Source: Breznakia blatticola
GTDB lineage: Bacteria > Bacillota_I > Bacilli_A > Erysipelotrichales > Erysipelotrichaceae
Reading direction: 5' to 3'
DNA: 32,000 bases
NCBI RefSeq assembly: GCF_004365815.1
Contig: NZ_SODD01000027.1
Span: 898 to 32,897, forward strand
How positions within the stretch are numbered: position 1 is the first letter of the stretch; every line of letters begins with the position of its first letter. This document shows, piece by piece, positions 5,867 to 26,492 of the stretch. Under the pieces are notes generated by a model that was not told the DNA's origin, searched no databases, and saw nothing but the letters and a program-made list of their open reading frames with translations. Made by a program: the position numbers and the translations under genes.

Positions 5867-6007
5867 TTTCATACCTTCCAATTCATTTTTAACTACTGTT
5901 AATTTCCTTATGTAATTCCTTTGTTTTTATACATAAGGACTACGTTTTTATTATACGATAATTTCGATAAAAGTGGTAAAAATGCTTGTAAATGTTATAC
6001 TAAATAT

Positions 6008-6715
6008 ATGAAAACATTATTACTAGCTGGAGAAATCACAGATTTCTTAAATGAGTTGTTTAACATCATCGATATTGAAGACATATTTAGCTTGATCTTT
6101 TTTATCGTTGTAATGGTTGGAATTGTATCGAGTTCAAGCAAGAAAAAGAAACAACAGCAAATGAAATATCAAACGACTTATGTACCAAAGGAAATGAAAC
6201 GCCAAAATGTACAAGTGGATTTAACAAGCAAAAGAAAAAGTGCACCTAGAGAAAAAAGTAAAGGTGCTGAAAAGAAAGGGATTTTCGCTCAAATTGCACA
6301 GTCGATTCAAGCTGGAATTGAAGAAGCAAATGCTGAAGCAAACAAGAAAAAAGCGAGCTTATATAAACCAAATCAAAGAGTGCAAGTAGATGTGACAAAT
6401 CATCAAATTTCAGATGAGCAACAAGACTTATATGAAGAAAGAAATCAAGCATATGAAGTACGCAAGAGATTTGAAAAAAACCATGCAAAAGCAGATAAGC
6501 AAAGTATTTTAGATACAACTATGGATGCACACGAACAAAACGTTCTTGATGCAGAAACTGCATACACCGCTGCATATGATTCACGAATAAGTAATGAATA
6601 TCAAATGTTTGCTTGGGAACCTATTGTTCCTAAAGAAGCAATGGCTGCTGAGCCCGCAATAGAAGCAGAACCAGCACTATCCGTAGATGAAGAAAAAGGT
6701 TGGATTATTATTTAA
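6008..6715 (+). CDS. Hypothetical membrane-anchored, charged low-complexity protein
   Basis: The only credible plus-strand ORF. ATG at 6008 (MKTLLLAGEITDF...), one hydrophobic helix IFSLIFFIVVMVGIV followed by SSSSKKKKQQQ, and a K/E/Q/A-rich tail with internal repeat QNVQVDLT / QRVQVDVT. No obvious SD, so the start is uncertain. Confidence 0.45.
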   Translation: MKTLLLAGEITDFLNELFNIIDIEDIFSLIFFIVVMVGIVSSSSKKKKQQQMKYQTTYVPKEMKRQNVQVDLTSKRKSAPREKSKGAEKKGIFAQIAQSIQAGIEEANAEANKKKASLYKPNQRVQVDVTNHQISDEQQDLYEERNQAYEVRKRFEKNHAKADKQSILDTTMDAHEQNVLDAETAYTAAYDSRISNEYQMFAWEPIVPKEAMAAEPAIEAEPALSVDEEKGWIII

Positions 6716-6741: not shown

Positions 6742-7230
6742 CTACTTTGTGATTAAACCAACAGTTTCTTGATTTGTGACATCTGTTGTTTCATGAAGTT
6801 GAATCATAGCATCATCATCCATATTTGTCACAACTACAATGACAGTGGGGTCAATTTGTAATTGTTCCAACATCGCTAAGTCCATTTCGACTAGTGTTGT
6901 TGATGCCTTAACTTTTTGGTTTTCTTTAATGAATATTTCAAATGGTTTACCGTTTAAATCAACCGTATTGATACCAATGTGTAAAATGACTTCATCGCCA
7001 TTATCTGATAGGATTCCGATTGCGTGTTTCGTTGGAAAAATACTGATAATTTTTCCTGAAACCGGTGAGGTAATGGTTCCATTTTTAGGATACACCGCAT
7101 ATCCATCTCCCATCATTTTCTGAGAAAACATTGGATCATTGACATCTTCAATATGCATTAACTTTCCAGATGCAGGAGAATACAAAGTCGTCGTATCGCT
7201 TACATCTCTTTTTTTAAAAATTCTCATCAT
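6742..7230 (-). CDS. PTS glucose-family EIIA component (EIIA-Glc/Crr-like)
   Basis: 162-aa ORF with DPMFSQKMMGDG, FPTKHAIGI and VILHIGINTVDLNGKPF (the two conserved EIIA-Glc histidines). Start overlaps the upstream glucokinase stop. Confidence 0.88.
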   Translation of the reverse strand: MMRIFKKRDVSDTTTLYSPASGKLMHIEDVNDPMFSQKMMGDGYAVYPKNGTITSPVSGKIISIFPTKHAIGILSDNGDEVILHIGINTVDLNGKPFEIFIKENQKVKASTTLVEMDLAMLEQLQIDPTVIVVVTNMDDDAMIQLHETTDVTNQETVGLITK

Positions 7231-8200
7231 ACTTTGCTTCTCCTTGAATTACCATTTGTGCTGCACCTGTTATCCCAGCATCATTACCAAGTGTGGCAAG
7301 TTTTATATCTGTTGATTGTCGAACAAGTGGAAATGCTACTTTTTCAAACACGCTTACAATTTTATGAAGTAGTATATTTCCTGCCTGTGATACGCCACCA
7401 CCGATAATCACGCTTTCTGGGTTTACTATATTGGCAATATTTGCACAAGCGACTCCAAGATCGTACGTAATTACATCTACGCCCTTGCATGCGAGCTTGT
7501 CATTTTCTTTTACCAGATCAAACACGAGTTTCGCTGTTATTTCTTCATCATTTTCGATTGCTTTTTGAAGCTTTGAATCTTCCATAAATGTTTTACTTTC
7601 TACATATGCAACATTCACAATTCCAGTTGCACTTGCCACTGTTTCTAAACAGTTTTCATTACCACATGTACAAGTGAAACCATAATTTAAACTACTGTGT
7701 AAGTGCCCGATTTCTCCTGCACTATTTGCTGTTCCTGTAAGTATAGAATTGTTTATAACAACACCGCCACCGACTCCAGTACCTAGTGTAATAAATACGA
7801 TATTTGATGCATGACTTACACTTGCTTCCCCATACGCTGCACAGTTTGCATCATTGGTAAGATAAAGTGGCACATCTAAATCATATTGTTGGAATGTTTT
7901 ACGGATATCCTGTGTTTTTGCCCATCCAAGGTTAAATGCATTTTTTACAGTTCCCTCTTCTTGGCTAACCACTCCAGGTGCACCTATTCCAATCCCTAAT
8001 AGTTGTTTACTTGTATAGTTTTTGTCGACTAATGTTGAAAGGATTGACTTACACATATTTGGAACAATTTGTTTTCCTGCTTCGTTAGTGTCTGTTGGAA
8101 TTGTCCAAGTTTCTAAACAAGTTCCTTCACTTGTATACATTCCAAACTTCGTAGTTGTTCCACCTAAGTCAATTCCAATTACGATATCTTTTTCATTCAT
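7214..8200 (-). CDS. glcK: ROK family glucokinase
   Basis: IGIDLGGTTTKFG, GEIGH and zinc motif CTCGNENCLETVAS. ATG at 8200 (MNEKDIVIGIDLGG) is preferred over the GTG at 8227 from the ORF track. Overlaps the upstream gene by 8 nt. Confidence 0.85.
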   Translation of the reverse strand: MNEKDIVIGIDLGGTTTKFGMYTSEGTCLETWTIPTDTNEAGKQIVPNMCKSILSTLVDKNYTSKQLLGIGIGAPGVVSQEEGTVKNAFNLGWAKTQDIRKTFQQYDLDVPLYLTNDANCAAYGEASVSHASNIVFITLGTGVGGGVVINNSILTGTANSAGEIGHLHSSLNYGFTCTCGNENCLETVASATGIVNVAYVESKTFMEDSKLQKAIENDEEITAKLVFDLVKENDKLACKGVDVITYDLGVACANIANIVNPESVIIGGGVSQAGNILLHKIVSVFEKVAFPLVRQSTDIKLATLGNDAGITGAAQMVIQGEAKYDENF

Positions 8201-8840
8201 TGAATGCCACAACCTTTCCCACACCATTTTCGTAGGTAATCGTTGTCACACCAGAGTTTTTCAACTCTTGCTTTACAGGTATCGTTTCATCTACCATATG
8301 TACAATTGTACGAATAACATTACCGTGTGTTACAACCATCAATTTGCTATCATCTTGATGCTTGTTTAAGATCATTTCAAGTCCTTTATTTAGTCGTGAT
8401 TCTACTTCCTTTTGGGTTTCCGCTTCGTTTGCTTGATCCACATCTTTAATTGCTAAAGCTATTTCATCTAAACTCAACGTTGTAAAGATATCACGCACTT
8501 CTATATTTTTATTTTTTGCGACTTTGCCATACACATAGTCGCAAAAGCTACCATCCAGTGAGCCATAAAAGGTTTCACGGAATTCATACGTAGGGATGAT
8601 TTTTGTTTCATCCCTATATGTATTTTCTGCCAAAATAAGATTTGCAGTTCGTATGGTTCTGCCCAGATCGCTTGTATAAATTACATCAAATTTTTCATTT
8701 TCGAGACGTTTGCCTGTCGCAATTGCATCTTCTTCCCCTTTTTGTGTTAAAGGTGCATCAGACCAACCTTGCATTTTTTTGTATTTATTTAAATACGTTT
8801 CCCCGTGCCGAATAAAATAAATCGTTACTTTATTACCCAT
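8193..8840 (-). CDS. Histidine phosphatase superfamily protein (phosphoglycerate-mutase-like sugar phosphatase)
   Basis: 215-aa ORF with FIRHGETYLN, SDLGRTIRTA, RETFYGSLDG and VVTHGNVIRTIV (complete RHG...R...E...HG core). Confidence 0.82.
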   Translation of the reverse strand: MGNKVTIYFIRHGETYLNKYKKMQGWSDAPLTQKGEEDAIATGKRLENEKFDVIYTSDLGRTIRTANLILAENTYRDETKIIPTYEFRETFYGSLDGSFCDYVYGKVAKNKNIEVRDIFTTLSLDEIALAIKDVDQANEAETQKEVESRLNKGLEMILNKHQDDSKLMVVTHGNVIRTIVHMVDETIPVKQELKNSGVTTITYENGVGKVVAFNE

Positions 8841-8871
8841 TGTCTACACCATTTCCTTACTATTTGAAACC

Positions 8872-9858
8872 TTATTCACTTAATAATGTTTCCAATTGCT
8901 TAATTTGACGTTTTGTAAATTCTGTACCACCACAATATAATTCATCTTCATACTCACAAATTAAATATCCATCAAATGACGTTTCTTTAATTGCAGCAAT
9001 AATTTCTGGATATGGGATACTTGCTTCTACACAGTTTTCATCTAGGTAGTGGAATTTACAGTGCATCTCAAAGCAATATGGCATGATACGTTTCATACCT
9101 TCTAATAATGCAGGCAGTTGCTCTTTACTTTTGAATTGTACGAATCCATACATTCCTTGCAACACACCATTGATTGCAGGGTGTGCATTTGCTTCTGTAA
9201 GTTTTGCTCTTGCTTCTTCAATATCCACACCAGCATAGCGCATATCTGCAGCCATTTGTAAGTGTTCTTCTTTTACTCCAGCTTGAAGTGCTTTCATCCA
9301 TTGTGGTTTATTTGGTGCAATTGAGAAACATCCAAAGTCAGGAATAAATCCTAAATACTTTGATCCAGTCTTTTCAATCACTGCTAAGTATTCCATCATT
9401 TTTGGTGAAGTTGGTGTTTCTGGATTATGAATTTCGATACCAACATGCACATCATAAAGTTCAGCATATGGCGCCAAACGTTCAAATGCACTTGGTGATA
9501 ACATATATTGTGCACGCATCACCTTACACCCTAATGCATTTGCTGTTTTTAAATCAATGATTGTATCTGCAAGCATTTCATCATCACTTAAATCGCGATC
9601 ATGACGCATTCCACGATCGTTATTTGCTCCATAACTTACTGGACCAATTCCATACGTTTCTTTTAATCTAGTAACCAATCCAAGAAATTCATCACTTACA
9701 TTTGGATACGATGGTAACATTTGTGTCCCAACAATTTCATAACCAGTAGCTCCGGCAAGCGCTGCTTGTTTTACACATTCTTCAAAATCATATTCATATC
9801 GTGCATATTCTGTTCCATAACAGAATAAAGTAGCACCTATTTTCATATTTGTATTCAT
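8872..9858 (-). CDS. Xylose-isomerase-like TIM-barrel protein; candidate large (catalytic) subunit of a C-glycoside deglycosidase (DgpC/CarB-like)
   Basis: 328-aa ORF. E-D-H-E metal-site pattern typical of the fold: HVGIEIHN, FIPDFGCF, FEMHCKFHY, LICEYEDE. Sits 8 nt downstream of the DUF6379-like small subunit. Confidence 0.6.
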   Translation of the reverse strand: MNTNMKIGATLFCYGTEYARYEYDFEECVKQAALAGATGYEIVGTQMLPSYPNVSDEFLGLVTRLKETYGIGPVSYGANNDRGMRHDRDLSDDEMLADTIIDLKTANALGCKVMRAQYMLSPSAFERLAPYAELYDVHVGIEIHNPETPTSPKMMEYLAVIEKTGSKYLGFIPDFGCFSIAPNKPQWMKALQAGVKEEHLQMAADMRYAGVDIEEARAKLTEANAHPAINGVLQGMYGFVQFKSKEQLPALLEGMKRIMPYCFEMHCKFHYLDENCVEASIPYPEIIAAIKETSFDGYLICEYEDELYCGGTEFTKRQIKQLETLLSE

Positions 9859-9866
9859 CTTAGTTT

Positions 9867-10301
9867 CTACTCCTCTACACGTACATCAAGTACATCTCCA
9901 CTATCAAGAGGCATGTACATATGTCCCGGTCCTATATTCATATATGGAACACGTAACATTAATTTCAACTCAATTTTGTGGTTACCTTTTGCCAACCCAC
10001 CTTTTTTAATTACATGAATGGTTGCAGGTTCTACTTGACTCCAAAATTCAGTAATTGCATATTTTAATTTGTATACAGGAAGTTCCTTATTACGATATGC
10101 AAACGTAACTGCTTCTTGATCAACTTTTTCTCCATCGATATACACTTCAAGTAGATCGATATCAGAAAGATAATGACCTCTATAATATCCTAGTTGTACA
10201 TCAAAGCTAAATCCATTGCGTTTATTATTGATATACATGTCTTTGAAGGAATCTTTTTTTATAATCTCTTCATTTAATTGCATTCTCATTGCAAAAGCCA
10301 T
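9867..10301 (-). CDS. DUF6379-like small protein; candidate C-glycoside deglycosidase beta subunit (DgpB/CarC-like)
   Basis: 144-aa ORF. NGFSFDVQLGYYRGHYLSDIDLLEVYIDGEKV and KKGGLAKGNHKIELKLMLRVPYM match, from memory, the G-F-x-F...YYRG-x-x-LS...V-DGE-x-V and GGL-x-x-G-x-H-x-L-E-L...R-[IV]-x-Y pattern of DgpB/CarC-type subunits. Strong RBS GGGGGAAAG. Confidence 0.55.
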   Translation of the reverse strand: MAFAMRMQLNEEIIKKDSFKDMYINNKRNGFSFDVQLGYYRGHYLSDIDLLEVYIDGEKVDQEAVTFAYRNKELPVYKLKYAITEFWSQVEPATIHVIKKGGLAKGNHKIELKLMLRVPYMNIGPGHMYMPLDSGDVLDVRVEE

Positions 10302-10312
10302 GTTCTTTCCCC

Positions 10313-11416
10313 CTAAAATTTAATCTCTTTATTTTCAGCTGCTGATTTATAAATTGCATCTAATACTTTTGTAACTGCTAAAGCTTCTTCTGGTTTTACT
10401 AGTGGTTCTGTTCCATTTACAACAGCTTCTAACCATTGTTTTGCATCGATGGTACCTTCTTCACCACCACCGCCACCGAAGTATGCGACACCACCAACAG
10501 GTGATAATGTTTCTTCCATTAATTGGTTGTTTTTTCCACGGTTATAGATCAATTCATTTTTTCCATAACTCATTCCTGAGTGAATTTCTGCACCAGCTTT
10601 TGTACCACAAAGTGTAGTTGATGCTTCTCTTGATTCAAGAATATTTAAAGCCCAGCTTGCTTCAAGGTTAATTGTTGCTCCATTTTTCATCTTAATGAAT
10701 CCCATGGCTGAATCTTCAACTTCATATGTTTTTGGATCCCATGGTCCAAATAGGTTTCCTTCTGTTGCTTGTTCTAATCCACCAAGCTTATAAAACACAG
10801 ATCCATTTACACTATCTACATCATAGTTATTCATACACCATAAAGTTATATCCAATGCATGTGTTCCAATATCAATTAATGGTCCCCCACCTTGTGCTTC
10901 TTTGTCCATGAATACTCCCCATGTAGGTACTCCTCTACGACGTACTGCATGTGCTTTTCCATAATAGATATCTCCAAGTTCACCATCTGCACATGATGCA
11001 TGTAAGTTTTGAACTTCTGGACGGAAACGGTTTTGGTATCCAACCGTAAACTGCATTCCTGATTTCTTCCAAGCTTCTACCATTTTCTCTGCTTCTGTAC
11101 TGCTGTGTGACATTGGTTTTTCACAGTACACGTGTTTTTTTGCATCAAATGATGCAATTGCAATCTCACTATGCGACACATTTGGTGTACAAATGTGCAC
11201 TACATCTACATCAGGGTTTTGCAACACTTCATGATAATCTGTTGTCACTTGTGCGCCTTTGATTCCAAATTCATTTGCGGCTTTTATTGCACGCTCTTCA
11301 ATTAGGTCACAAAATGCAACCATTTCACATAAATCTGCATTTTTTTTCAGTGCCGGGAATTGTTTTTGATTAGCAATTCCTCCACATCCAATAATCGCTA
11401 CTCTTAACTTTTTCAT
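10313..11416 (-). CDS. Gfo/Idh/MocA family NAD(P)-dependent oxidoreductase (DgpA-like candidate glycoside 3-oxidoreductase)
   Basis: 367-aa ORF with Rossmann N-terminus LRVAIIGCGGIANQ, the EKPM motif (VYCEKPMS) and a typical C-terminal alpha/beta domain. Immediately upstream of the two-subunit lyase candidate. Confidence 0.75.
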   Translation of the reverse strand: MKKLRVAIIGCGGIANQKQFPALKKNADLCEMVAFCDLIEERAIKAANEFGIKGAQVTTDYHEVLQNPDVDVVHICTPNVSHSEIAIASFDAKKHVYCEKPMSHSSTEAEKMVEAWKKSGMQFTVGYQNRFRPEVQNLHASCADGELGDIYYGKAHAVRRRGVPTWGVFMDKEAQGGGPLIDIGTHALDITLWCMNNYDVDSVNGSVFYKLGGLEQATEGNLFGPWDPKTYEVEDSAMGFIKMKNGATINLEASWALNILESREASTTLCGTKAGAEIHSGMSYGKNELIYNRGKNNQLMEETLSPVGGVAYFGGGGGEEGTIDAKQWLEAVVNGTEPLVKPEEALAVTKVLDAIYKSAAENKEIKF

Positions 11417-11434
11417 ATATTTGACCTCTTCTTT

Positions 11435-12349
11435 CTATATCACAAAGTTTCTTAAATATTTCGTACTAATTGCGACTGCCTTCTTGGCATCATCATATGT
11501 TTTTTCAAACGCCTTATCTTCTACCTCAATACATGTATATCCATTAAATCCAATATCCGTTAATGCAGATACATATTCTGCCCAATCTACATCTCCAAGT
11601 CCTGGTACTTTTGGTGCCATGTATTCAAGTGGCGTTGCCATAACTCCGACATCTTTTAGTTTTTCTTGATACACTTTAATATCTTTATAGTGCACATGAT
11701 AGATGCGATCCTTAAATTCGTATAACGGTGCAATGTAATCAATTTGTTGCCAAATAAAGTGTGATGGATCATAGTTGATTCCTAAACGTTTACTAGGCAA
11801 TAATTCAAATACTTTTCGCCAGTTAGCTGGTGAAGTCATTAAATTTTGACCTCCTGGCCATTCATCATTTGTAAATAACATCGGACAATTTTCAATTGCA
11901 ATATTTACATCATTTGCTTCAGCTACATCTAATATTGGCTGCCAAATACCAACTACATCTTTTAGATTTTCGTCAACGGATTTTTTTGAATCCCGACCGA
12001 TAAATGTTGTTACTGTTTTTACACCATAAGCATTAGCTGCTTTAATTACTTGTTTTAAGTGTTTAGTATAATACTCACGTTTACTTACATCTGGATCCAT
12101 CGTATTTGGATAATATGCAAGTGCTGAGATTTCAACACCCTTTTGCATACAATAATCCAAATTTTCTTGAATCGTTTTCTCACTTAAGTCATATACATCA
12201 ATGTGCGAAACTCCTGCATATCGTCTTTCCGCTTTTCCCTTTGGCCAACATGCAACTTCTACACACTCCAATCCGTTCATTGCGACAATATCGATCATTT
12301 CTTTGAAATCACTTTGATCTAAAATCGCACTTACTAATCCTAATTTCAT
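11435..12349 (-). CDS. Sugar phosphate isomerase/epimerase family TIM-barrel protein (second copy)
   Basis: 304-aa ORF. NIAIENCP, NYDPSHF, YHVHYKD and CIEVED give an E-D-H-E pattern of the xylose-isomerase-like fold. Confidence 0.75.
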   Translation of the reverse strand: MKLGLVSAILDQSDFKEMIDIVAMNGLECVEVACWPKGKAERRYAGVSHIDVYDLSEKTIQENLDYCMQKGVEISALAYYPNTMDPDVSKREYYTKHLKQVIKAANAYGVKTVTTFIGRDSKKSVDENLKDVVGIWQPILDVAEANDVNIAIENCPMLFTNDEWPGGQNLMTSPANWRKVFELLPSKRLGINYDPSHFIWQQIDYIAPLYEFKDRIYHVHYKDIKVYQEKLKDVGVMATPLEYMAPKVPGLGDVDWAEYVSALTDIGFNGYTCIEVEDKAFEKTYDDAKKAVAISTKYLRNFVI

Positions 12350-12358
12350 ACTATCTCC

Positions 12359-13411
12359 TTACTTCTCAAATAAAATTGCTTGATTTGTTTCACTTGATTT
12401 CCAAGCCGCTTCCATAATCGCTAGTACACGACGTACCTCTTCATGTTTTACAAGTTGTTCTTCTTTACCATTTACTACATTTACAAAGTTTTGATAGAAA
12501 TCTGTCCAGTCCGTTTCTACAGTTGGTAATTCTTCTGAATATAGTGCCCCTGCAGGTTGTGGTGCAAATTGACGTGTAGGACCAGCTACTGTTTCTGCAA
12601 TTTGTGCAGGCAGTTTGTCTAACAATTCACTTGTTCGCCATATTTCTCCATCACAAGCAAATGTATTAATTTTTAAAGTCCCTCGATTTCCTGCCACCAA
12701 CCAACGCGGTTGATAATTCAAGACATAGGTTCCTAGTTCAATATGATATGTAATCCCATTATCGAATTTTAAAAGTATTTTAAAGTAATCATCTACTTCA
12801 TAATTAATGATGCTTTTTAAATCAGCAAATACACTTAGAACTTTTGCGCCTTTCATCATTTGGCATGCTTGGTCGATTAAATGAACTCCCCAATCGTATA
12901 GCATTCCACCACCGTATTTTTTATATAGGTGCCATTCATGAATTCTTCCATTTGCTGTATGAAGTTTTGATTCAATCGTGAAAATATCACCAATCATATG
13001 TTCTTCATAAACTTTTTTTGCAATTCGAAAATCACGATCCCAACGTCTGTTTTGATGTACCATCATCGTTACGTTGTTGTTTTCTACCGCTTTTACCATT
13101 TCGTCGTATTCTGCAGTATTTAATGCTGCTGGTTTTTCATCAATAATATGTTTTCCAGCATTTGCAGCTTTTATCACCATTTCTTTATGTAAGTGATTTG
13201 GAACTGTAATCAATACTGTATTTACTTCTGGATTCGCTAATAAATCCTCGACATCTTTGTATGCTGGATATCCCAAATCAATTGCTTCTTGACGCTTTGT
13301 ATCATCAATCTCACATACTGCGACAATTTCTACTCCCTTCACTCGAGTAGCATTTTGTTCGTGCCATTTACCCATGCCACCAAAACCAATGATTCCTAAT
13401 TTAACGTTCAT
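12359..13411 (-). CDS. Gfo/Idh/MocA family oxidoreductase (second copy), first gene of the operon
   Basis: 350-aa ORF with KLGIIGFGGMGKWH and IIDEKPAA (EKP motif). RBS GAGG. Confidence 0.8.
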   Translation of the reverse strand: MNVKLGIIGFGGMGKWHEQNATRVKGVEIVAVCEIDDTKRQEAIDLGYPAYKDVEDLLANPEVNTVLITVPNHLHKEMVIKAANAGKHIIDEKPAALNTAEYDEMVKAVENNNVTMMVHQNRRWDRDFRIAKKVYEEHMIGDIFTIESKLHTANGRIHEWHLYKKYGGGMLYDWGVHLIDQACQMMKGAKVLSVFADLKSIINYEVDDYFKILLKFDNGITYHIELGTYVLNYQPRWLVAGNRGTLKINTFACDGEIWRTSELLDKLPAQIAETVAGPTRQFAPQPAGALYSEELPTVETDWTDFYQNFVNVVNGKEEQLVKHEEVRRVLAIMEAAWKSSETNQAILFEK

Positions 13412-13519
13412 ATGTTTAACCTCATCTTTTCTATCTTTATTTTACGAAGATTGGGACATTTCATCTTCCCGTTTTTTATCGCGAAGTTGATGATTTACAT
13501 CCTTGTTTTCCATTGAAAA

Positions 13520-13558
13520 TAAAAAAAAGACAAAATTTGTGATACATTTTTTGTCTTT
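13520..13558 (-). terminator. Rho-independent terminator after the AraC-family gene
   Basis: Minus strand reads AAGACAAAA-(11 nt)-TTTTGTCTT followed by TTTTTTTATTTTC. It begins right at the stop codon. Confidence 0.7.
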
Positions 13559-15877
13559 CTAATTCTTTATTAATCCACAATACATTGTAGATATTTGGTT
13601 TGGTGCTAAATCAATATCAACTGTCAAAATTTCATTGGTAACATGAACCTTTTTAATCATAAGATCTGGACTCGATTTTCTTGCTAGATGATCAATATCC
13701 ATACCAGTTACAAAGTTCACATAATCCCATTTCTTCCACTCATCAATTAGACTTCCGCTCGTTGTACTGATGGTAAACATTCGTACTTCATATTCTCCAT
13801 TTGTTACACCTTCTAAGTGAAACCGGAACGATTTTGATTCATTATGGAAGAGCTGATTAATATCATTCACATGGATTTTATCTTTTTTAATATACATGGA
13901 AGGTTCGATATGACAGTAGTTGTTACACAGAATTCCAATATCATATCCTTCATCAATTGTCGCAATATAATTTGCATTTTTACCAATCACTTCACTACGC
14001 AAATGATGATAAAACTTATATCCGTAAAATGCAGGTTTGTAGATACCTTGTCGATTCAATAGCCCATATGAACCATTGAGTAATTCGTTGGTATTTTTTG
14101 CATCTATAACCACATCACACATAACATCATAAGCAATCTCATCCACTTCATCAGAAATACTTTGTAGACTTCGCACAACGTATGCTCCTTTAAAGCACGT
14201 ATCATTAACATAGTCTGGATATATTTTCGAGTAATTCCATGAAGTTACATATAGTGGTAAATCTTGGTATTTTGTTTGCTTAAGTTGCTTTTTTACTTCT
14301 GCTACATCATTTGCTAATTTATCGTTATTTCCAATGTCCTTTAATTTCGTTTGTGAATCAATCGTATAACTATGCATGGTGATGAAATCAAATACTACAT
14401 TTTGTTTCTCTAGTTTTTCAAATACATCATTATTCGCATAACCCACTTCAAATCCCACACCACCAATTTTAAAGTTATTACTATAACTTTTTAGCAACAT
14501 GAATATTGCTTTATATAGTTTTGCATAACGCGAGCTATTTAAGTTACTTTGATTACTTAATTCAAAACGATACTTCCCGACATTCACAATCATAAATTGA
14601 TTGATCAAAAACGACATGAATTTACGTAGTACTTCTTTGTATATATCAAGGTATTGTTCAAACATATCTGCATCTTGATCATTTACTTGATACTTTGCAA
14701 ATGCAGGTGTTTCAAGTTCAATCATGACAGGAATATTATTTCGAATAAGAAAATTGAAAACGTTTTGGATTTTGTCATAATCTAAAAATACTTCATCATT
14801 TTCGATGGATACAATATTTTCACTAAAGATATCAATGATTCGAAACGATTCAATTCGCAATGATTTCCGCGTTTTCAACAACTGTTCTTGCACTTGAAAT
14901 TCAAGCAACTTATGCGCTGGTCCAACATTCATCATTTTGGTAACTTGAAGACGTTGCGGTTTATGTTTTCTTACATCTAGTGTAATCTCCTCATGCATCG
15001 TTTTATTTTTATATTCATAGTTGAACTCTTTTAACTGTTCAACAACTTTCTCATTTTGGTCTATTGCTAGTTCTGCTTTATGTTCTTCTTGATATTGTTG
15101 ACGATATAAAGAAGGTGTTGTTTTGTATGCTTCCTTGAATGATTTATTAAATGCAGTGGTACTAGCAAATCCATGATCCACTGCTATTTGTGTAATATTT
15201 TTATCCGTTAGTTCTACATCTTCAATCGCTTTCATTAACCTCACTTGATTAATAAAATCAATGAAATTCTTTCCTGTCTCTTGCTTAAAGTATCTAGAGA
15301 AATAAGAAGAAGACATATAGAAGTGAGAAGCGATATCATCTAAGGATAAGCGTATATTATAGTTTGTATAAATATATTTTAAAATACTTTCCAATCGTGT
15401 ATCATAATCATCACTTTCAAGTTCCATATGATAATTTGTGACTAGCACATCAAGAAATTGAAATCCTAATTCAAAATACTTATAAGGAAACTTCTTATCA
15501 TTACTTGCGAATGTTGATATTAAGTGATGCATTGTATCGCGCAACATGGAATGATTTAGTGCGGTATTTTTTACAGAGTTACAATCAAAGCGAATGGTAT
15601 TGTTTTGTAAGGAATCGCGCAATACGTATAATGGAATGACAATTTCACAAACCATTAATTCTTTACTTTGACTATGAATCTCAAAATTTTCTCCATAGTT
15701 AACAAGTAAGAAATCATCCTTCATCAATGTGAATGATTCTTCTTGCTTATCAATAACTAGTGATCCAAAGACGACATAGAAAAACACAACACTTAATTCA
15801 TGTCGTTTGTAGTCATTTACATCTGTTAGAATTTGAAATCCACTTTTTGAATCGAAGCTATTGAATATATTGTACAT
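13559..15877 (-). CDS. AraC/XylS family transcriptional regulator fused to a C-terminal GH39-like (beta-xylosidase-like) domain lacking both catalytic glutamates
   Basis: 772-aa ORF. N-terminal cupin-like region. AraC HTH at about residues 160-260 (LSLDDIASHFYMSSSYFSRYFKQETGKNFIDFINQVRLMKA...IAVDHGFASTTAFNKSFKEAYKTTPSLYR). Residues from about 300 to 772 resemble GH39: RFELSNQSN, KIGGVGF, VFDFITMHSYT, LPLYVTSWNYS, YGLLNRQGIYKPAFYGYKF. Confidence 0.8.
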   Translation of the reverse strand: MYNIFNSFDSKSGFQILTDVNDYKRHELSVVFFYVVFGSLVIDKQEESFTLMKDDFLLVNYGENFEIHSQSKELMVCEIVIPLYVLRDSLQNNTIRFDCNSVKNTALNHSMLRDTMHHLISTFASNDKKFPYKYFELGFQFLDVLVTNYHMELESDDYDTRLESILKYIYTNYNIRLSLDDIASHFYMSSSYFSRYFKQETGKNFIDFINQVRLMKAIEDVELTDKNITQIAVDHGFASTTAFNKSFKEAYKTTPSLYRQQYQEEHKAELAIDQNEKVVEQLKEFNYEYKNKTMHEEITLDVRKHKPQRLQVTKMMNVGPAHKLLEFQVQEQLLKTRKSLRIESFRIIDIFSENIVSIENDEVFLDYDKIQNVFNFLIRNNIPVMIELETPAFAKYQVNDQDADMFEQYLDIYKEVLRKFMSFLINQFMIVNVGKYRFELSNQSNLNSSRYAKLYKAIFMLLKSYSNNFKIGGVGFEVGYANNDVFEKLEKQNVVFDFITMHSYTIDSQTKLKDIGNNDKLANDVAEVKKQLKQTKYQDLPLYVTSWNYSKIYPDYVNDTCFKGAYVVRSLQSISDEVDEIAYDVMCDVVIDAKNTNELLNGSYGLLNRQGIYKPAFYGYKFYHHLRSEVIGKNANYIATIDEGYDIGILCNNYCHIEPSMYIKKDKIHVNDINQLFHNESKSFRFHLEGVTNGEYEVRMFTISTTSGSLIDEWKKWDYVNFVTGMDIDHLARKSSPDLMIKKVHVTNEILTVDIDLAPNQISTMYCGLIKN

Positions 15878-15904
15878 ACTGACCTCTCTTTCATCATACC
15901 AAAT

Positions 15905-15940
15905 CTAAAATGGAAAAGGTGAAAGTTTTTCTTTCACCTG
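15905..15940 (-). terminator. Rho-independent terminator after PTS EIIBC
   Basis: Minus strand reads AGGTGAAAG-AAAAA-CTTTCACCT followed by TTTCCATTTTAG. Confidence 0.7.
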
Positions 15941-15951
15941 ATCGATTTGTA

Positions 15952-17334
15952 TTATACTTTTAATTTCTTTTCGACACTTTCGCTCCAACCAAACATGTAC
16001 GTTAAACCAAAAGCTAAGACTAATGAAGCAACTGCTCCTAATAATGCTCCATAGAATCCCATGTCAATTCCTGCTGGATTAATAAGTGCTGGAATACCTA
16101 AGATTCCTGTACCAAATGTATATCCTTTTCCACCAAGTAGTGAAGCAATTAATCCTCCAAGTGCTCCTCCTGCTAAACCAAAGATAAATGGTTTTCTTGC
16201 TGGAACATTAATACCAAATAATGCTGGTTCTGTAATTCCAAATAATCCAGATACTGCTGAACCTACACAAACTTGTGTAACGGCTTTGTTTTTTGAACGC
16301 AATCCGAATCCAAGTACTGCTCCAGTTTGTCCCATTGCAGAAGCAAAGAACACGATCGCAATTAATGGACAATATCCCATTGCTGCAAGATTTGCAATAA
16401 AGATTGATGAGAATGCTTTACTTACTCCAAATAAAACAAGTAGTTGCCAAATTCCACCTACAAGTACTCCAGTGATTAATGGACTAAATGCATACAATGC
16501 TTGAATTGCATCAGTAATGAATGACATTACTGCAGTTAATACAGGCCCAATAATTAAGAATGCAAGTGGTGTTACTACACACAATACAATCATTGGCACA
16601 AAAATCATCTTTAAAATATCTGGAACGATTTTTCTAGCAAACTTCTCAACGATTGCTGCCAAATATGTTGATAAAATAATTGGGAATACCGTTTTTGAAT
16701 AATTAACTAATGTTAATGGAAGAGCAAACAATGTTAACTGTTGTCCTTCATTTACCGCATTAATGATTTCAGGTGTGATCATTGCACATGCGATAATCAT
16801 TGCATAGAATGGTTTTCCACCGAATTTCTTAGCTGATGTATATGCTAAGAAGATCGGGAAGTAATAGAAGATTGCATTACTAATTGCATATAGCACTAGA
16901 TATGATCCACTCGTTGGATCTAACCATTTCAACATTACAAATAATGATAAGAACCCTTGTAGTGTACCACTTGCTGCTAACACACCAACGATAGGTACAA
17001 AGATTGCCGAAGCAATATCCGTAATTTTATCAAGCAATGAAGCATTTTTATCTGTCTCTGAAGATACTTCTACTTCACCTCCAGCTTTTGCTGGATATAT
17101 TTTAGCTGCTTCTTCATAGTAACTAGATACTGCATTACCAATCACTACTTGCAATTGTCCACCAGCATCGATGATTCCCATTACACCATCAGCTTTTGCA
17201 AGTTCTTCATCATTCACTTTCTTACGATCAACTAAAATAAATCGTAGTCGCGTAAAGCAATGACTAAATGATTGCACATTATCAATACCACCAACTAAAT
17301 CGATTATTGTTTTTACATTTTCTTTTACACTCAT
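15952..17334 (-). CDS. PTS glucose/beta-glucoside-family EIIBC component (no EIIA domain)
   Basis: EIIB motif FSHCFTRLRF (phosphorylatable Cys), polytopic EIIC with LFGITEPALFGINV. ATG at 17334 is preceded by AAAGAGGAGA; the GTG at 17385 from the ORF track has no RBS. Confidence 0.85.
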   Translation of the reverse strand: MSVKENVKTIIDLVGGIDNVQSFSHCFTRLRFILVDRKKVNDEELAKADGVMGIIDAGGQLQVVIGNAVSSYYEEAAKIYPAKAGGEVEVSSETDKNASLLDKITDIASAIFVPIVGVLAASGTLQGFLSLFVMLKWLDPTSGSYLVLYAISNAIFYYFPIFLAYTSAKKFGGKPFYAMIIACAMITPEIINAVNEGQQLTLFALPLTLVNYSKTVFPIILSTYLAAIVEKFARKIVPDILKMIFVPMIVLCVVTPLAFLIIGPVLTAVMSFITDAIQALYAFSPLITGVLVGGIWQLLVLFGVSKAFSSIFIANLAAMGYCPLIAIVFFASAMGQTGAVLGFGLRSKNKAVTQVCVGSAVSGLFGITEPALFGINVPARKPFIFGLAGGALGGLIASLLGGKGYTFGTGILGIPALINPAGIDMGFYGALLGAVASLVLAFGLTYMFGWSESVEKKLKV

Positions 17335-17419
17335 ATTATCTCTCCTCTTTGTGAAATCAAGTTTGTCTAATTTGTTTTCTAACACACTGATACTTATGTT
17401 GAATCAAGACCTCCTTTTG

Positions 17420-17433
17420 TGTAAGCGCATACA
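17420..17433. promoter_or_regulatory. Candidate cre (CcpA) catabolite-responsive element upstream of PTS EIIBC
   Basis: TGTAAGCGCATACA fits the relaxed cre consensus WTGNAANCGNWNNCW. Lies about 90 nt upstream of the EIIBC start. Confidence 0.45.
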
Positions 17434-17687
17434 TATCATAACGCAAGAATAGAGTCTTATCTTTCGCTTTTTTTACATGTAATCTACGAAAAAAGAACTT
17501 TTGATTTTACAAACATAAGAAAATGTAAAAATATATCACACGTTTTTTTACTTAAGTTTAACTGGTATTGAGTTTTCTGGCTAAAAGACTACTAAATTAT
17601 GATGTTTAACCGTAAAACTATTTCTTACGGATGATCTCTTATCTTTACTATACCGATTATTTTATCTCCTCACAATATAATCCTTAA

Positions 17688-17726: not shown

Positions 17727-18728
17727 TTATATACATTGAATGACAATCAATACAATCCACAACAAACCTAGTGTAATATTTTGAATTACCTTGTTTTTAT
17801 ATAGTGGATCTTTGTATCGATCACGATACCGATTATAACTTTGTTTAAAAAAGAATAGAGAAATATAAAAATAGCTTACATAAAGTGGAAAACAGTATAA
17901 TGAAATACCTAGTCCAATAAGATATAACAAGATCTTCCAATGCATATTCAAAATAGGTTTTTGTCGTTTATCCAAATGTTCATTAATAATGTCTGAGACA
18001 TCATCAACTATTGCACTAGCTATTGACTTCACTTCTTCGTTTCCAATATTCATCGCATATCCGTGAAAGATTTCAATCATTTGTTTATCGTTTCCGCCAT
18101 CTCCAACAACAAGAACTTTATCACTCTTAGGTAAATGATGATCCAACAACCATTGTAATGATGTTGCCTTGTTATCGTGTAATCCATTTACATCGATTGT
18201 TTCAATATTTGGATGAAAAGATACTTCACTACCATACGCCTCTCGTAATAATTTCGTGGCTGTTTTCACTTTATCATATGTATCAAAGCGCATATCTATT
18301 CCATAATAATCATATTTTTCAATTTCATCGAGTTCAATTTCTTTCGTGTAATAATTATAAGTGCTTGCAGCTTCATTATCACTTTCAACTACCATACGCT
18401 CAAATCCAGCAGATAAAATATAATATACACTACTTCGCACGATTGGATCACATATGATTTTCTTTGCCAAACTTCCTGGAAACTTTGCTTCATAGATAGG
18501 CTTATACGCACTGTTATACACAACTGAACCATTATTACATACTGCAAAATGAAATGGGATTTTGTATTTGTCTATATCTTTTTTCAACGTCAAAATATCT
18601 CGTCCAGTCACAAAGATGAAGATATTTCCTGCATCTATCCAATTTGTAATTGCATCTACTGTTTTTTTCTTTATTTCACCTTTCGAATTTGTTAGTGTTC
18701 CATCCACATCACTTGCTAATACTTTCAT
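17727..18728 (-). CDS. Cof-type HAD-IIB phosphatase with a C-terminal hydrophobic membrane extension
   Basis: 333-aa ORF. HAD motifs LASDVDGTLT, FVTGRD, VVGDGGNDKQM. The last 75 aa or so hold 2-3 hydrophobic helices (ILLYLIGLGISLYCFPLYVSYFYISLFFF, ITLGLLWIVLIVIQCI). RBS AAAGGAGG. Confidence 0.8.
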   Translation of the reverse strand: MKVLASDVDGTLTNSKGEIKKKTVDAITNWIDAGNIFIFVTGRDILTLKKDIDKYKIPFHFAVCNNGSVVYNSAYKPIYEAKFPGSLAKKIICDPIVRSSVYYILSAGFERMVVESDNEAASTYNYYTKEIELDEIEKYDYYGIDMRFDTYDKVKTATKLLREAYGSEVSFHPNIETIDVNGLHDNKATSLQWLLDHHLPKSDKVLVVGDGGNDKQMIEIFHGYAMNIGNEEVKSIASAIVDDVSDIINEHLDKRQKPILNMHWKILLYLIGLGISLYCFPLYVSYFYISLFFFKQSYNRYRDRYKDPLYKNKVIQNITLGLLWIVLIVIQCI

Positions 18729-18740
18729 AATCCTCCTTTA

Positions 18741-18768
18741 GAAAAAAGGTAGGTTGACCTACCCTTTT
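18741..18768 (-). terminator. Intra-operon intrinsic terminator/attenuator between dhaL and the HAD gene
   Basis: Minus strand reads AAAAGGGTAGG-TCAA-CCTACCTTTTTTC. The dhaL TAG stop is inside the stem and the HAD RBS starts 3 nt after the T-tract. Confidence 0.55.
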
Positions 18769-19376
18769 ACACTGATTTCAAATGCTTCAAATAATAATAC
18801 AGCTACATATGCTCCTGGATCTAGTAAATCTCTAGAAGCTTCTCCTCTTGTTGCTGCACGTCCATGTTTGGCAATCATTGTCGCAGTTTGTTCATATCCT
18901 TGTCTAGCTGCTTTACTTGCTTTACTTGCTAATTGCGCTAATGGAAGTTCTATGTTTTCTTTTAATACTTGAACTGCTGGATCAATTCCATCAATAAATG
19001 TTTTTTCACCAACGTTTGCCTTACCTCGATTGATAACACCTGCTTCAAAACTGTCAAAGAACTGCACCCAGTTTTCATTTGTAAGTTCATTTTGATTTCG
19101 TAAATCTTTTCCTGCTTGCATCAAACCAGAAGCCATAAGCGTTCCCATCGTTGATGGCACTGCACTTGCCATGGCTTTTCCACCAGCATATACAAGTTTT
19201 CCTAGATCTTGTTCATCAGTATCTTTGACTGCAAGATATGCAGCACGAAATCCATCTGACATAGTAAGTCCTAAATCTCCATCACCAACAATTTGATCCA
19301 TTTCGATAAGTGTATCTTTATTTTCTTGCATGATGTTAGCAACAACTTCAAGATATCGTTTCATGTCTTGTAACAT
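18759..19376 (-). CDS. dhaL: DhaL-like (Dak2) nucleotide-binding subunit, divergent copy
   Basis: 205-aa ORF. Dak2 motif DQIVGDGDLGLTMSDGF (GDGDLG rather than GDGDHG). RBS AGGAGG. Confidence 0.8.
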   Translation of the reverse strand: MLQDMKRYLEVVANIMQENKDTLIEMDQIVGDGDLGLTMSDGFRAAYLAVKDTDEQDLGKLVYAGGKAMASAVPSTMGTLMASGLMQAGKDLRNQNELTNENWVQFFDSFEAGVINRGKANVGEKTFIDGIDPAVQVLKENIELPLAQLASKASKAARQGYEQTATMIAKHGRAATRGEASRDLLDPGAYVAVLLFEAFEISVKG

Positions 19377-19384
19377 ATTGCCTC

Positions 19385-20395
19385 CTACATTTGTTTGAAG
19401 AATGGCGTGTTGACTGGATAGTCAATCAATGGTTTAAGTTCTTCATCAACTTTGAGTAGTGAAATCGAAACACCTGACATTTCAAGTGCTGTTGCATATT
19501 CACCTACATAATAACGATACGCTTTAATGCCTTTTTCTTTTAAAATCGCATCAATTTTTCTTGTAACGATGTATTGTTCATCTAGTGGAGTTGCACCTAA
19601 TCCATTAACAAGAACAGCAACTTCATCACCTTCAACATATGGTAAATCCGCAAGAATTTGTTGCATCATTTCTTCTGTGATTTGATCTGCACTTTCTAAC
19701 TGACCACGGCGAATTCCTGTTTCACCATGTATTCCCATACCGATTTCCATTTCATTTTCTTCAATGGAGAATCCCGCTTTTCCAACTCTTGGAACTACAC
19801 ATGCACTTAAGGCAACACCCATCGTGCGTACATTATCTGCTGCTTTTTGGGCAATTCGGGTAACGGTTTCTAAATCGTACATTTTTGCTGCCGCTGCTCC
19901 TGCACATTTATAGACAAAGAAAATTCCAGCCACACCTCTACGTGTGCTTTTTTCTCCTGGTGCACTTGGTCCAGCACTAGCTACATCATCGGCTCCAAGC
20001 ACAGTTGTCACTTGAATATTTTCTTCAAAGTCGGCCATTTCTGTAGCCATATCAAAGTTAAAGATATCCCCATTATAGTTTCCATAAATGTAAAGAACTC
20101 CTGCACCTTGATCAATGTCTTTGGTAATTTCAAACATCTGTTCTGCTGAAGGAGATTGAAATACATCACCTACTGCACAACCATCAAGCATCCCATCACC
20201 AACATAACCTAGAAATAATGGTAAGTGTCCAGATCCACCACCAGTAGAAATCCCTACTTTTCCTGGTGTTTTATTTTTTGTGACATAACACTGAAGATCA
20301 TCATTTACACAAGTTACTTGATCTTGATGTGCAATATAAATCCCTTCTAACATTTCTTTTAGATAGTTTTCTGGATTGTTTATAATCTTTTTCAT
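19385..20395 (-). CDS. dhaK: DhaK-like (Dak1) substrate-binding kinase subunit, divergent copy
   Basis: 336-aa ORF with STGGGSGHLPLFLGYVG (HLP rather than HEP) and MGIHGETG (hemiaminal His region). Confidence 0.8.
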   Translation of the reverse strand: MKKIINNPENYLKEMLEGIYIAHQDQVTCVNDDLQCYVTKNKTPGKVGISTGGGSGHLPLFLGYVGDGMLDGCAVGDVFQSPSAEQMFEITKDIDQGAGVLYIYGNYNGDIFNFDMATEMADFEENIQVTTVLGADDVASAGPSAPGEKSTRRGVAGIFFVYKCAGAAAAKMYDLETVTRIAQKAADNVRTMGVALSACVVPRVGKAGFSIEENEMEIGMGIHGETGIRRGQLESADQITEEMMQQILADLPYVEGDEVAVLVNGLGATPLDEQYIVTRKIDAILKEKGIKAYRYYVGEYATALEMSGVSISLLKVDEELKPLIDYPVNTPFFKQM

Positions 20396-20402
20396 ATAGA
20401 AC

Positions 20403-21065
20403 CTACTTTAGTGTAATTTCTTTTGGATACGCCCAACTTTGTAATTCTTCTGCTGGGAAGAATTCAGGTTCTTTACCATTTAATGCAGTTAATGTATTGT
20501 AGTAAAGTTGTGCAAGTTCTTCAATATACGCTGCTTTTAAATACGCTTCATAAATATCATTTGCATCACATGCAACTGCTCCATGACCTTTCATTAAGAA
20601 ACAATCCGCTTCTTTTACTGGCTCGACGGCTGTTTCTGCTAGTTCTGGAGTTCCAGGACGACCATATGCAGCAACTGGTACACGACCTTTTGATAACCCC
20701 ATAGTTGCAACTTCATAAACAATTGCTGGTAATGGTTTATTTAATACTGCAAACGTTGTTGCATACATAGAGTGTGTATGCGCAATTGCTACTACATCTT
20801 CTCTTGTTTCATATATTTTTAAATGCATAAGTGATTCACTTGTTGGACGTAATCCAGATAAGTTTTCAATTACCACTGCATTCATATCCATTACAATCAT
20901 ATCTCTAGGTGTCAACAATTCACGGTCAACACTTGTCGGTGTAATTACAACATAACCAGTTTCTTTATCACGAGCGGAAAAGTTTCCTGATTTATGTTTA
21001 CATAAGCCATCTTTTTGTGCGCGTTTTGCGATTTCACACACATCTTTCTTTAAAGCTTCTAACAT
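20403..21065 (-). CDS. Class II aldolase/adducin-family protein (FucA / L-ribulose-5-P 4-epimerase-like)
   Basis: 220-aa ORF with PTSESLMH, IAHTHS and MKGHGAV (Glu plus three His zinc ligands). RBS AGGAGG. Confidence 0.8.
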   Translation of the reverse strand: MLEALKKDVCEIAKRAQKDGLCKHKSGNFSARDKETGYVVITPTSVDRELLTPRDMIVMDMNAVVIENLSGLRPTSESLMHLKIYETREDVVAIAHTHSMYATTFAVLNKPLPAIVYEVATMGLSKGRVPVAAYGRPGTPELAETAVEPVKEADCFLMKGHGAVACDANDIYEAYLKAAYIEELAQLYYNTLTALNGKEPEFFPAEELQSWAYPKEITLK

Positions 21066-21073
21066 AGTTCCTC

Positions 21074-23137: not shown

Positions 23138-23156
23138 CCTTACCCCCTGTTTCTAT

Positions 23157-24152: not shown

Positions 24153-24164
24153 ACTATAACCCAC

Positions 24165-24800: not shown

Positions 24801-24801
24801 A

Positions 24802-26172: not shown

Positions 26173-26202
26173 AAATTTAAACTCTCCTCTTTTGTTTTCT
26201 TA

Positions 26203-26484
26203 TTAGCCATTATTCACGGCATCAATTAGTCTTTGTAATTCCTCTTTTTGTTTCATTCCTGTAAGAAATGCAATTCCATTGATTACTGGAATTGGATATT
26301 CCTTATTTGTTTTCGTAATTGCAATGTATGCAACCGCATCCGTCAAATGACGATCCACAGATTTTAAGTCTACCGCTTCTACTTTTGCGTCAACTTTATT
26401 TTCTTTTAGTAAACGATTTACTTTACTTGCTACGGTTTGTGAAGTTGCTACTCCACTACCACAAGCCACGATTATTTTTTTCAT
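26203..26484 (-). CDS. PTS galactitol/lactose-type EIIB component
   Basis: 93-aa ORF. MKKIIVACGSGVATS carries the active-site Cys in the P-loop-like motif. RBS AGGAGGG. Confidence 0.82.
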   Translation of the reverse strand: MKKIIVACGSGVATSQTVASKVNRLLKENKVDAKVEAVDLKSVDRHLTDAVAYIAITKTNKEYPIPVINGIAFLTGMKQKEELQRLIDAVNNG

Positions 26485-26492
26485 AGTCCCTC

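Follow-up and report, generated by a model that had tools for sequence, protein, structure and literature searches.

An AraC-family regulator of Breznakia blatticola with a GH39-like domain predicted to be catalytically inert, and its possible role as a glycoside sensor

The 32,000-nucleotide stretch of the Breznakia blatticola genome analyzed here (contig NZ_SODD01000027.1, positions 898 to 32,897 of the forward strand; "the window" below means this whole stretch) contains a gene for a 772-amino-acid AraC-family regulator whose C-terminal half resembles the beta-xylosidases of glycoside hydrolase family 39 (GH39). The gene lies between a sugar transporter gene of the phosphotransferase system (PTS) and an operon of the dgp type, and the two glutamates that carry out catalysis in GH39 enzymes are replaced in its product. 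We propose that the protein is an AraC activator responsive to glycosides, whose inert GH39-derived domain would act as a sensor in addition to a cupin-like domain, a reading to which we assign a probability of about one half. The open reading frame (ORF) begins with ATG behind the ribosome-binding site AGAGAGG, and NCBI lists the identical product (100%) under the name of an enzyme; a B. pachnodae protein labelled 'GH39 family glycosyl hydrolase' shares 71% identity with it. The gene and its parts are as follows.

13559..15877, minus strand: whole ORF, 772-amino-acid AraC-family regulator with C-terminal GH39-like domain (NCBI entry 'beta-xylosidase [Breznakia blatticola]')
15413..15877, minus strand: residues 1-155, cupin-like beta-barrel (strands 13-81) and helices 110-149 (weak Cupin_2 match, AraC/ToxT alignments, model)
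15068..15412, minus strand: residues 156-270, AraC/XylS double helix-turn-helix (HTH) DNA-binding domain (HTH_18, HTH_AraC, PDB matches)
13994..15001, minus strand: residues about 293-628, GH39-type (beta/alpha)8 barrel, predicted to be catalytically inert (Pfam, phmmer, model, Foldseek, profile alignment)
13562..13993, minus strand: residues 629-772, beta-sandwich as in GH39 beta-xylosidases (Pfam match to 738, model strands 629-769)
14549..14551, minus strand: Gln443 (codon CAA), aligned with the acid/base Glu of XynB (E160, 'NEP'; phmmer alignment, codon reading)
14240..14242, minus strand: Ser546 (codon TCA), aligned with the nucleophile Glu of XynB (E277, 'TEY'; phmmer alignment, codon reading)

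The assignment of the C-terminal half to GH39 is backed by sequence, profile and predicted fold alike. The Pfam family Glyco_hydro_39 (PF01229) matched residues 316-738 with E=1e-28 and 100.8 bits against a gathering cutoff of 26. A phmmer search of all PDB chains returned Thermoanaerobacterium saccharolyticum XynB (1px8) at E=1.6e-23 and nine further GH39 beta-xylosidases at 1e-18 to 1e-23, and in the alignment of the family profile to XynB1 a second stretch placed the beta-sandwich on residues 411-483. An AlphaFold model built with 81 family sequences had a mean predicted local distance difference test score (pLDDT) of 88 and a predicted template modelling score (pTM) of 0.69; it consisted of a beta-rich N-terminus at 13-81 followed by helices, the HTH at 160-270, a strand/helix barrel at about 293-625 and a beta-sandwich at 629-769. 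When this model was compared with the PDB by Foldseek, the best matches were GH39 beta-xylosidases (E about 1e-34, target-normalised template modelling score, TM, of 0.76-0.80), followed by alpha-L-iduronidases. A preliminary description of this gene, made by eye from the sequence, had already likened the region behind the HTH to GH39 through five motif pairs with XynB; all five strings are present at the residues given, and the XynB alignment reproduces every pair. Its estimate of about 470 amino acids for the extension has to be raised to about 500.

That description had also placed Gln443 and Ser546 at the two catalytic columns, and both the codons and the phmmer alignment agree with it, no intact Glu standing at either column. 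The two catalytic segments of the regulator, LSNQSNLNSS and LYVTSWNYS, are free of Asp and Glu. As no acidic residue adjoins either position, no alternative register restores a catalytic residue, and a one-residue shift of the kind 'W-x-[DN]-E', which was considered as a way of rescuing catalysis, was ruled out for this protein. In active members of the clan the acid/base Glu of the NEP motif ends barrel strand 4 and the nucleophile Glu ends strand 7; the model places N442/Q443 just past the strand 437-441, and S546 inside the strand 542-550. The sister protein of B. pachnodae also has Ser at the nucleophile position, and has His at position 443. Thus the protein has the profile score and the barrel-and-sandwich fold of GH39 and neither of its catalytic glutamates. 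Because both Glu are lost (Q443, S546) and several near-invariant pocket residues are changed as well, the module is predicted to be unable to act as a retaining glycosidase, and the database name 'beta-xylosidase' is very probably wrong, given that both catalytic residues are missing.

The N-terminal 270 residues resemble an ordinary AraC-family regulator. HTH_18 matched residues 182-261 (E=2e-21, 76.5 bits against a cutoff of 33.6) and HTH_AraC scored 57.7 bits against a cutoff of 26.6 (E=1.2e-15), the two Pfam matches together spanning residues 176-261, which bears out the earlier placement of an AraC HTH after about residue 160. Amongst PDB chains, the same region matched Lin2118, RamA, SoxS, MarA and Rob. 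The region in front of it resembles the ligand-binding and dimerisation domain of AraC and ToxT. Its Cupin_2 match is weak and below the Pfam threshold (residues 24-76, E=0.056, 13.6 bits), and it is accompanied by several other observations: the NCBIfam AraC profile aligns at residues 36-267 and PDB ToxT at residues 33-258, the whole N-terminal part aligns with AraC, RhaS, ToxT and many other family members, relatives of the regulator match PF02311/PF07883 there, and the predicted model has an 8-strand beta domain at residues 13-81. Altogether, the cupin-plus-HTH plan appears to be intact and the GH39-like half has been added behind the HTH. It had been suggested that the domain would replace or supplement the usual cupin ligand site; with a cupin-like domain retained, the second half of that suggestion stands and the first does not.

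A word-indexed protein search, run both with the single protein and with the 81-sequence profile, returned only three fusion proteins and no named relatives. An exhaustive HMMER search with residues 300-772 against 1.84 billion cluster representatives (50% identity) yielded 1578 matches, 217 of them below 1e-30, with identity falling to about 30% past the sister protein. Almost all of the best 150 matches were proteins of 780-820 amino acids in which the matched region lay at about 310-800. An AraC HTH was present in at least 140 of the 151 nearest clusters, and therefore the nearest relatives of the GH39-like domain are other regulators and not enzymes. The members with a name belong to Clostridium intestinale, Vagococcus and Konateibacter, and are labelled 'GH39 family glycosyl hydrolase' or 'helix-turn-helix domain-containing protein'. 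Additionally, a survey of genome loci was seeded with five mainstream C-terminal domains, and describes the mainstream family rather than the Breznakia clade. Its scan of species-representative genomes found 141 relatives, of which 78 loci, mostly from Lachnospiraceae and other Clostridia, were kept; all 78 match the AraC HTH, and nearly all of the extended ORFs are about 740-860 amino acids long. The regulator shares the architecture of the family (cupin-like domain, AraC HTH and GH39-like domain in about 770-830 amino acids). On the evidence of these searches the AraC-GH39 fusion is a widespread family of Bacillota and not a one-off.

Two further observations were made on the distribution of the family. 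Several loci carry two or three AraC-GH39 paralogues in tandem (L002, 5469-10448; L003, 1739-6718; L038, 6530-13956; and L025), and some genomes have several AraC-GH39 loci; the tandem arrangement points to lineage-specific expansion, as in other families of substrate-specific sensors. Four loci (L053, L063, L073 and L083) had been binned as Parabacteroides, Paludibacteraceae, Bacteroides and Prevotella, respectively, and are probably mis-binned contigs, all other loci being from Bacillota.

From 6742 to 17385 every gene of the window is on the minus strand, and the order from upstream to downstream is PTS EIIB-EIIC gene, hairpin, regulator, A/T-rich hairpin with T-run, and an eight-gene operon. 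The features concerned are listed here.

15952..17334, minus strand: PTS EIIB-EIIC gene of the glucose/beta-glucoside type, presumed target (Pfam and comparison with B. pachnodae)
15917..15939, minus strand: intrinsic-terminator-like hairpin after the PTS gene, directly upstream of the regulator (hairpin scan)
13516..13558, minus strand: A/T-rich hairpin with T-run past the regulator stop codon, conserved in B. pachnodae (missed by the G+C-dependent scan)
6742..13411, minus strand: presumed target operon, encoding a Gfo/Idh/MocA protein (DgpA2-like), a TIM-barrel protein, DgpA, DgpB, DgpC, a His-phosphatase, a ROK protein and EIIA-Glc
12359-13411: match to 'DgpA2' crystallised with isoorientin (9m37), E=7.6e-100
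10313-11416: match to DgpA of strain PUE (7xr9), E=5e-205, about 80% identity
9867-10301: match to DgpB (7bvr_B), E=1.5e-25
8872-9858: match to the partner chain DgpC (7bvr_A), E=1.6e-98

By these matches the adjacent operon can be assigned to the dgp type of locus, which would remove sugars from C-glycosides by oxidation followed by cleavage and is here coupled to a PTS. For the PTS gene itself, the likely start is ATG at 17334, which gives 460 amino acids as in B. pachnodae and has the ribosome-binding site GGAGAG, and not GTG at 17385 of the mechanical ORF. The DgpA of Breznakia, a member of the Erysipelotrichaceae, is about 80% identical to that of strain PUE, a member of the Lachnospiraceae, and because of this identity across the two families a horizontal spread of the dgp cluster is suggested.

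The association of the regulator with such genes extends beyond this genome. B. pachnodae has the same arrangement of regulator, PTS and dgp operon. Five relatives at 25-30% identity (Vagococcus, Clostridium intestinale, Konateibacter and two metagenomes) all adjoin CGDB, AP_endonuc_2 and Gfo/Idh/MocA genes; altogether, DgpB-type genes adjoin the AraC-GH39 gene in 6/6 relatives looked up, with transporters of either the PTS or the ATP-binding cassette (ABC) type. Across the survey, a DgpB homologue was found within 10 kb in 40 of the 78 loci (20 of the 36 with full flanks), DgpC-like genes in 42 of 78 and Gfo/Idh/MocA homologues in up to 48, and seven more full-flank loci had only Gfo/Idh/MocA or TIM-barrel homologues of the window operon. 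Five of the loci with none of these genes were sampled, and their neighbours (GH3, GH43, GH106-like, a GPH symporter and an FAD oxidoreductase) are likewise those of small-glycoside loci. Since DgpB-type genes are few per genome, with, for instance, three DgpBC pairs described in some Catenibacillus genomes (PMC11170127), the presence of one within 10 kb at about 50% of the loci is, by informal judgement, far above expectation. The window shows the adjacency to glycoside genes that is common in the family. This conserved neighbourhood is the strongest argument for a regulon.

In the dgp-type loci with a PTS there is, in addition, a phosphatase of the His_Phos_1 or Cof-type HAD family (8193-8840 and 17727-18728 in the window, 14138-14800 in L004 and 10327-11190 in L006), whereas those coupled to an ABC transporter (L002, L005 and L007) are without one. 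Because the phosphatase occurs in the former and not in the latter, dephosphorylation of a PTS-imported glycoside 6-phosphate inside the pathway is suggested. Elsewhere in the window, a second sugar locus at 18759-26960 on the minus strand contains two DhaK/DhaL pairs, a class II aldolase, a PRD/Mga-type regulator with an EIIA-2 domain, an EIIC of the ascorbate/galactitol type and EIIA-2. On the plus strand, a 264-amino-acid ORF with a TTG start at 5921-6715, between the M20 peptidase and EIIA genes, had no Pfam match and may be either spurious or an uncharacterised gene.

From these observations the following mechanism can be put forward. A cytoplasmic factor of the AraC/XylS type would switch on the flanking PTS gene and the dgp operon when the glycoside substrate is present. 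Its GH39 module would have been kept as a non-hydrolytic glycoside-binding or allosteric domain, the occupancy of which, alone or together with that of the cupin, would control the HTH, and the HTH would in turn recognise a box that overlaps the -35 region at two promoters. The ligand might be a plant C- or O-glucoside, or the 6-phosphate that the PTS would derive from it. We infer here the binding of a ligand by the GH39-derived domain, the identity of that ligand, activation as opposed to repression, and the operator. The preliminary description had proposed much the same role for the domain with respect to the adjacent PTS and/or deglycosidase operons. A GH39 fold without either Glu is in keeping with that proposal, and the link to such genes has been strengthened by the relatives and loci described above; the domain itself may act as a sensor.

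Sequence features consistent with regulation at the two presumed target promoters were also found. Behind the hairpin at 15917..15939 an extended -10-like sequence, TGGTATGAT, can be read by eye as a promoter of the regulator gene, and the structure at 13516..13558 is likely to be a terminator, which would make the regulator monocistronic. Hexamers resembling a -10 element and lacking a good -35 precede both the dgp operon (TAAAAT, 13439-13444) and the PTS gene (TATGAT, 17435-17440). When both promoters from both species, four regions in all, were anchored by eye, ungapped, on these hexamers, a candidate operator box emerged in front of each.

13463..13480, minus strand: candidate operator box GATAAAAAACGGGAAGAT; the putative dgp -10 TAAAAT follows 18 nt downstream (post hoc pattern)
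17459..17476, minus strand: candidate operator box GTAAAAAAAGCGAAAGAT; the putative PTS -10 TATGAT follows 18 nt downstream (post hoc pattern)

The corresponding 18-nt degenerate box, GWWAAAAAANNRRRAGAW, has exactly 2 matches in the 32-kb window, both at the target promoters, where 0.02 would be expected, and it matches exactly at both corresponding sites in B. pachnodae. An unbiased k-mer search of the four promoter regions yielded A/T runs only and no shared operator, and the candidate box may serve as a lead for footprinting and nothing more. Separately, a near-consensus palindrome resembling a catabolite-responsive element (cre), TGTATGCGCTTACA, lies at 17420-17433 on the minus strand, directly downstream of the putative PTS -10, and B. 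pachnodae has it conserved as well. As this cre-like sequence follows the PTS -10 in both species, catabolite repression is suggested, and the palindrome is likely to be a CcpA site.

Several observations weigh against the proposed mechanism. The cupin-like domain is retained, and could be the sole sensor. GH39 beta-xylosidases bind xylosides and the Dgp substrates are glucosides, so that the specificity of the pocket would need to have changed. At 19 of the 46 barrel positions that hardly vary in the family, the Breznakia proteins have a different residue, and two canonical positions of the -1 subsite differ even between the two species (Q443/H443 and H502/V502); such replacements in the pocket are equally compatible with a structural or oligomerisation role and with a retuned pocket. 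About a fifth of the full-flank relatives have none of the pathway genes of the window nearby. As for the operator pattern, the sites that it matches are those from which it was built, and the genome is A/T-rich. Finally, ligand binding, DNA binding and regulation are all deductions from sequence.

The main rival takes up the first and third of these points. According to it, the GH39-like domain would be a structural or oligomerisation scaffold, for example one that joins AraC dimers for looping or cooperative binding, and only the cupin would sense the effector, as it does in AraC. The retained cupin-like domain is what this reading would expect, and it is favored by the heavy replacement of sugar-pocket residues in Breznakia, including the two that differ between the sister species; some GH39 xylosidases, moreover, are obligate tetramers. 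Across the family, however, the most conserved barrel positions are the active-site motifs of GH39 (E-W-N at the nucleophile, N-D 558-559, Y-W 583-584, D588 and E592), which is not expected of a mere scaffold, and the family is tightly tied to glycoside loci. We regard a pure scaffold as unlikely, while keeping it in view as the alternative of most weight.

Residual catalysis is a different matter, and it is the family-wide alignment, in concert with the residues of the Breznakia proteins, that bears on it. In the bifunctional 'trigger enzyme' that could be imagined, the GH39-like domain would turn over a glycoside through non-canonical residues, making or destroying the inducer, in addition to its part in regulation. 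In support of such an activity, the nucleophile column holds Glu in most relatives (134 of the 151 nearest proteins, 89%, and 89 of 90 genome-locus regulators, 99%), and the canonical acid/base column holds Asp in about half of the nearest 151 (Asp 74, Asn 24, Glu 16; amongst the 90 genome-locus regulators Asp 27, Asn 19, Gly 15 and Glu 6). Furthermore, the position after the acid/base is Glu in 58 of the 90 (64%), in the form 'W-x-[DNG]-E', other members having 'W-x-D-P'. In the family, either Asp at the canonical column or this '+1' Glu might serve as the acid/base, and the Glu might instead be a ligand contact; the ungapped pairing of the family consensus 'fElwlde' with 'fEvwNEp' of XynB1 is the register that the 'W-x-D-P' members favor. 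Against turnover, the position before the acid/base, Asn in the enzymes, is lost in both sets, the canonical Asn-Glu pair is missing in about 90% of the family, C-glycosides are not hydrolysable by this mechanism, and Catenibacillus, with 21-28 'GH39' genes, was negative for beta-glucosidase and xylosidase (PMC11170127). The nucleophile Glu is absent in 17 of the 151, these losses are independent, and therefore the function of the family tolerates loss of catalysis.

The regulator studied here and its sister go further than most relatives: whichever register is chosen, neither of their catalytic positions holds or adjoins an acidic residue. Where the family has a conserved Glu-Trp at the nucleophile, the regulator has Ser-Trp and is hence a divergent member. 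By this comparison the double catalytic loss (Q/S in B. blatticola, H/S in B. pachnodae) is a peculiarity of Breznakia, and the feature that has degenerated throughout the family is the NEP motif of the acid/base. A trigger-enzyme role is accordingly very unlikely for the Breznakia protein; in mainstream members, residual or altered catalysis is conceivable.

The comparison of the two Breznakia species points to constraint on the domain. In the barrel, the proportion of nonsynonymous differences (pN) was 0.20 against a synonymous proportion (pS) of 0.81, the latter saturated, and the values were similar to those of the N-terminal domain; pN was far below pS in the beta-sandwich too. Barrel columns conserved in the family are identical in the pair at 38 of 46 positions, and other columns at 187 of 282. 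The GH39-like domain is thus under purifying selection and not in decay. That the regulator is the decaying remnant of an AraC-xylosidase fusion with a neutrally drifting C-terminal half, as the loss of both catalytic residues and an identity of only 25-30% to all relatives but one might suggest, is hardly credible in view of these ratios, the intact 772-amino-acid ORFs in both species, the confident AlphaFold model (pLDDT 88) and the retention of the AraC-GH39 architecture in hundreds of clusters. A pseudogene or fusion artefact was likewise rejected, on the intact B. pachnodae locus and pN/pS.

We therefore return to the glycoside-responsive activator with an inert GH39-derived sensor, and to what it could mean for the family. 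It is conceivable, though at somewhat less than even odds, that AraC-GH39 proteins at large are dedicated, hitherto unrecognised sensor-regulators of the loci with which gut bacteria deglycosylate plant glycosides, Dgp loci included, that their GH39-derived domain is an inducer-binding pseudo-enzyme, of which the doubly inactivated Breznakia protein would be the extreme case, and that the 'GH39' genes of Catenibacillus are regulators as well. The two Catenibacillus genomes in question have 21 and 28 'GH39' genes, a number that was called unusual in the paper, which also notes negative beta-glucosidase and xylosidase tests (PMC11170127). Such a combination would make sense if AraC-GH39 regulators accounted for most of these genes. 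A locus from a Catenibacillus metagenome-assembled genome (L082) carries an AraC-GH39 regulator, and many of the Catenibacillus genes may encode regulators too. What is at stake is a family of regulators that is routinely mislabelled as enzymes and that stands beside genes for the breakdown of plant glycosides, including C-glycosides, in gut bacteria. Because its members are named 'beta-xylosidase' or 'GH39 family glycosyl hydrolase', they are likely being counted as carbohydrate-active enzymes (CAZymes). If the GH39-derived domain is a sensor, it would allow inducing compounds to be matched directly to their dgp-type loci, and would provide a modular scaffold for biosensors. The architecture is common in databases and functionally undescribed: no description of the AraC-GH39 fusion was found in the open-access full-text literature, where absence is not proof, and in the same literature no regulator of dgp clusters and no glycoside sensing for C-glycoside cleavage was found.

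Amongst known systems, the closest in fold are the GH39 beta-xylosidases (T. saccharolyticum XynB, 1px8/1uhv; G. stearothermophilus XynB1, 1w91/2bs9; the C. crescentus enzyme, 4ekj), which have the same barrel and beta-sandwich and with which homology was detected at E=1e-23 by the single sequence and 4e-90 by the family profile. The regulator keeps the GH39 motifs FE 438-439, GG 472-473, H502, Y504 and K614-P615. It differs from the enzymes in the AraC part fused in front, in Gln and Ser for the two Glu, in Asp584 for W315 of XynB, and in further changes to the pocket.

In overall architecture the counterpart is AryK of Staphylococcus aureus (NCBIfam NF047455); no other homologue with a genetic study behind it was found. 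Positions 19-750 of its 759-position profile align to residues 26-762 of the regulator with E=3.7e-50, and 171 bits against a cutoff of 850 indicate the same AraC plus GH39-like architecture and not an orthologue. AryK is described as an AraC/XylS regulator that potentiates Hla and virulence, with global metabolic and virulence effects, in the passages available from its paper, which mention neither a ligand nor the GH39-like domain (PMC3922988). The family would tie this poorly understood virulence regulator to a carbohydrate-sensing lineage. Rsp (NCBIfam NF033869) was considered as a second full-length homologue and rejected, as it scored 45.9 bits against a cutoff of 400 and aligned only at residues 52-324.

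With AraC, RhaS, MelR, ChbR and XylR the regulator shares the cupin-like N-terminus and double HTH, a gene beside its presumed targets, and promoters with a poor -35 and an upstream box. In classical AraC/XylS activators, however, the HTH is C-terminal, whereas here a 500-amino-acid, enzyme-derived domain lies behind it; in Escherichia coli XylR, the sensor has the fold of a periplasmic binding protein and not of a glycosidase. In concept, and with no homology implied, the nearest likeness is to the RsgI anti-sigma factors of Clostridium thermocellum, in which glycoside-hydrolase-like modules act as carbohydrate sensors. Such modules lie outside the cell, as parts of membrane anti-sigma factors, and respond to polysaccharides, whereas the Breznakia protein would be a cytoplasmic one-component regulator, presumably of small glycosides.

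The presumed target operon, finally, has its known counterpart in the dgpA-H puerarin operon of strain PUE (DgpA, 7xr9; DgpB-C, 7bvr). The words 'regulator' and 'AraC' do not occur in the passages available from the preprint on that operon (10.1101/816074). Homologues of DgpA, DgpB and DgpC are common to both, and the cluster in the window, unlike that of strain PUE, is coupled to a PTS (EIIBC and EIIA) and to a histidine phosphatase.

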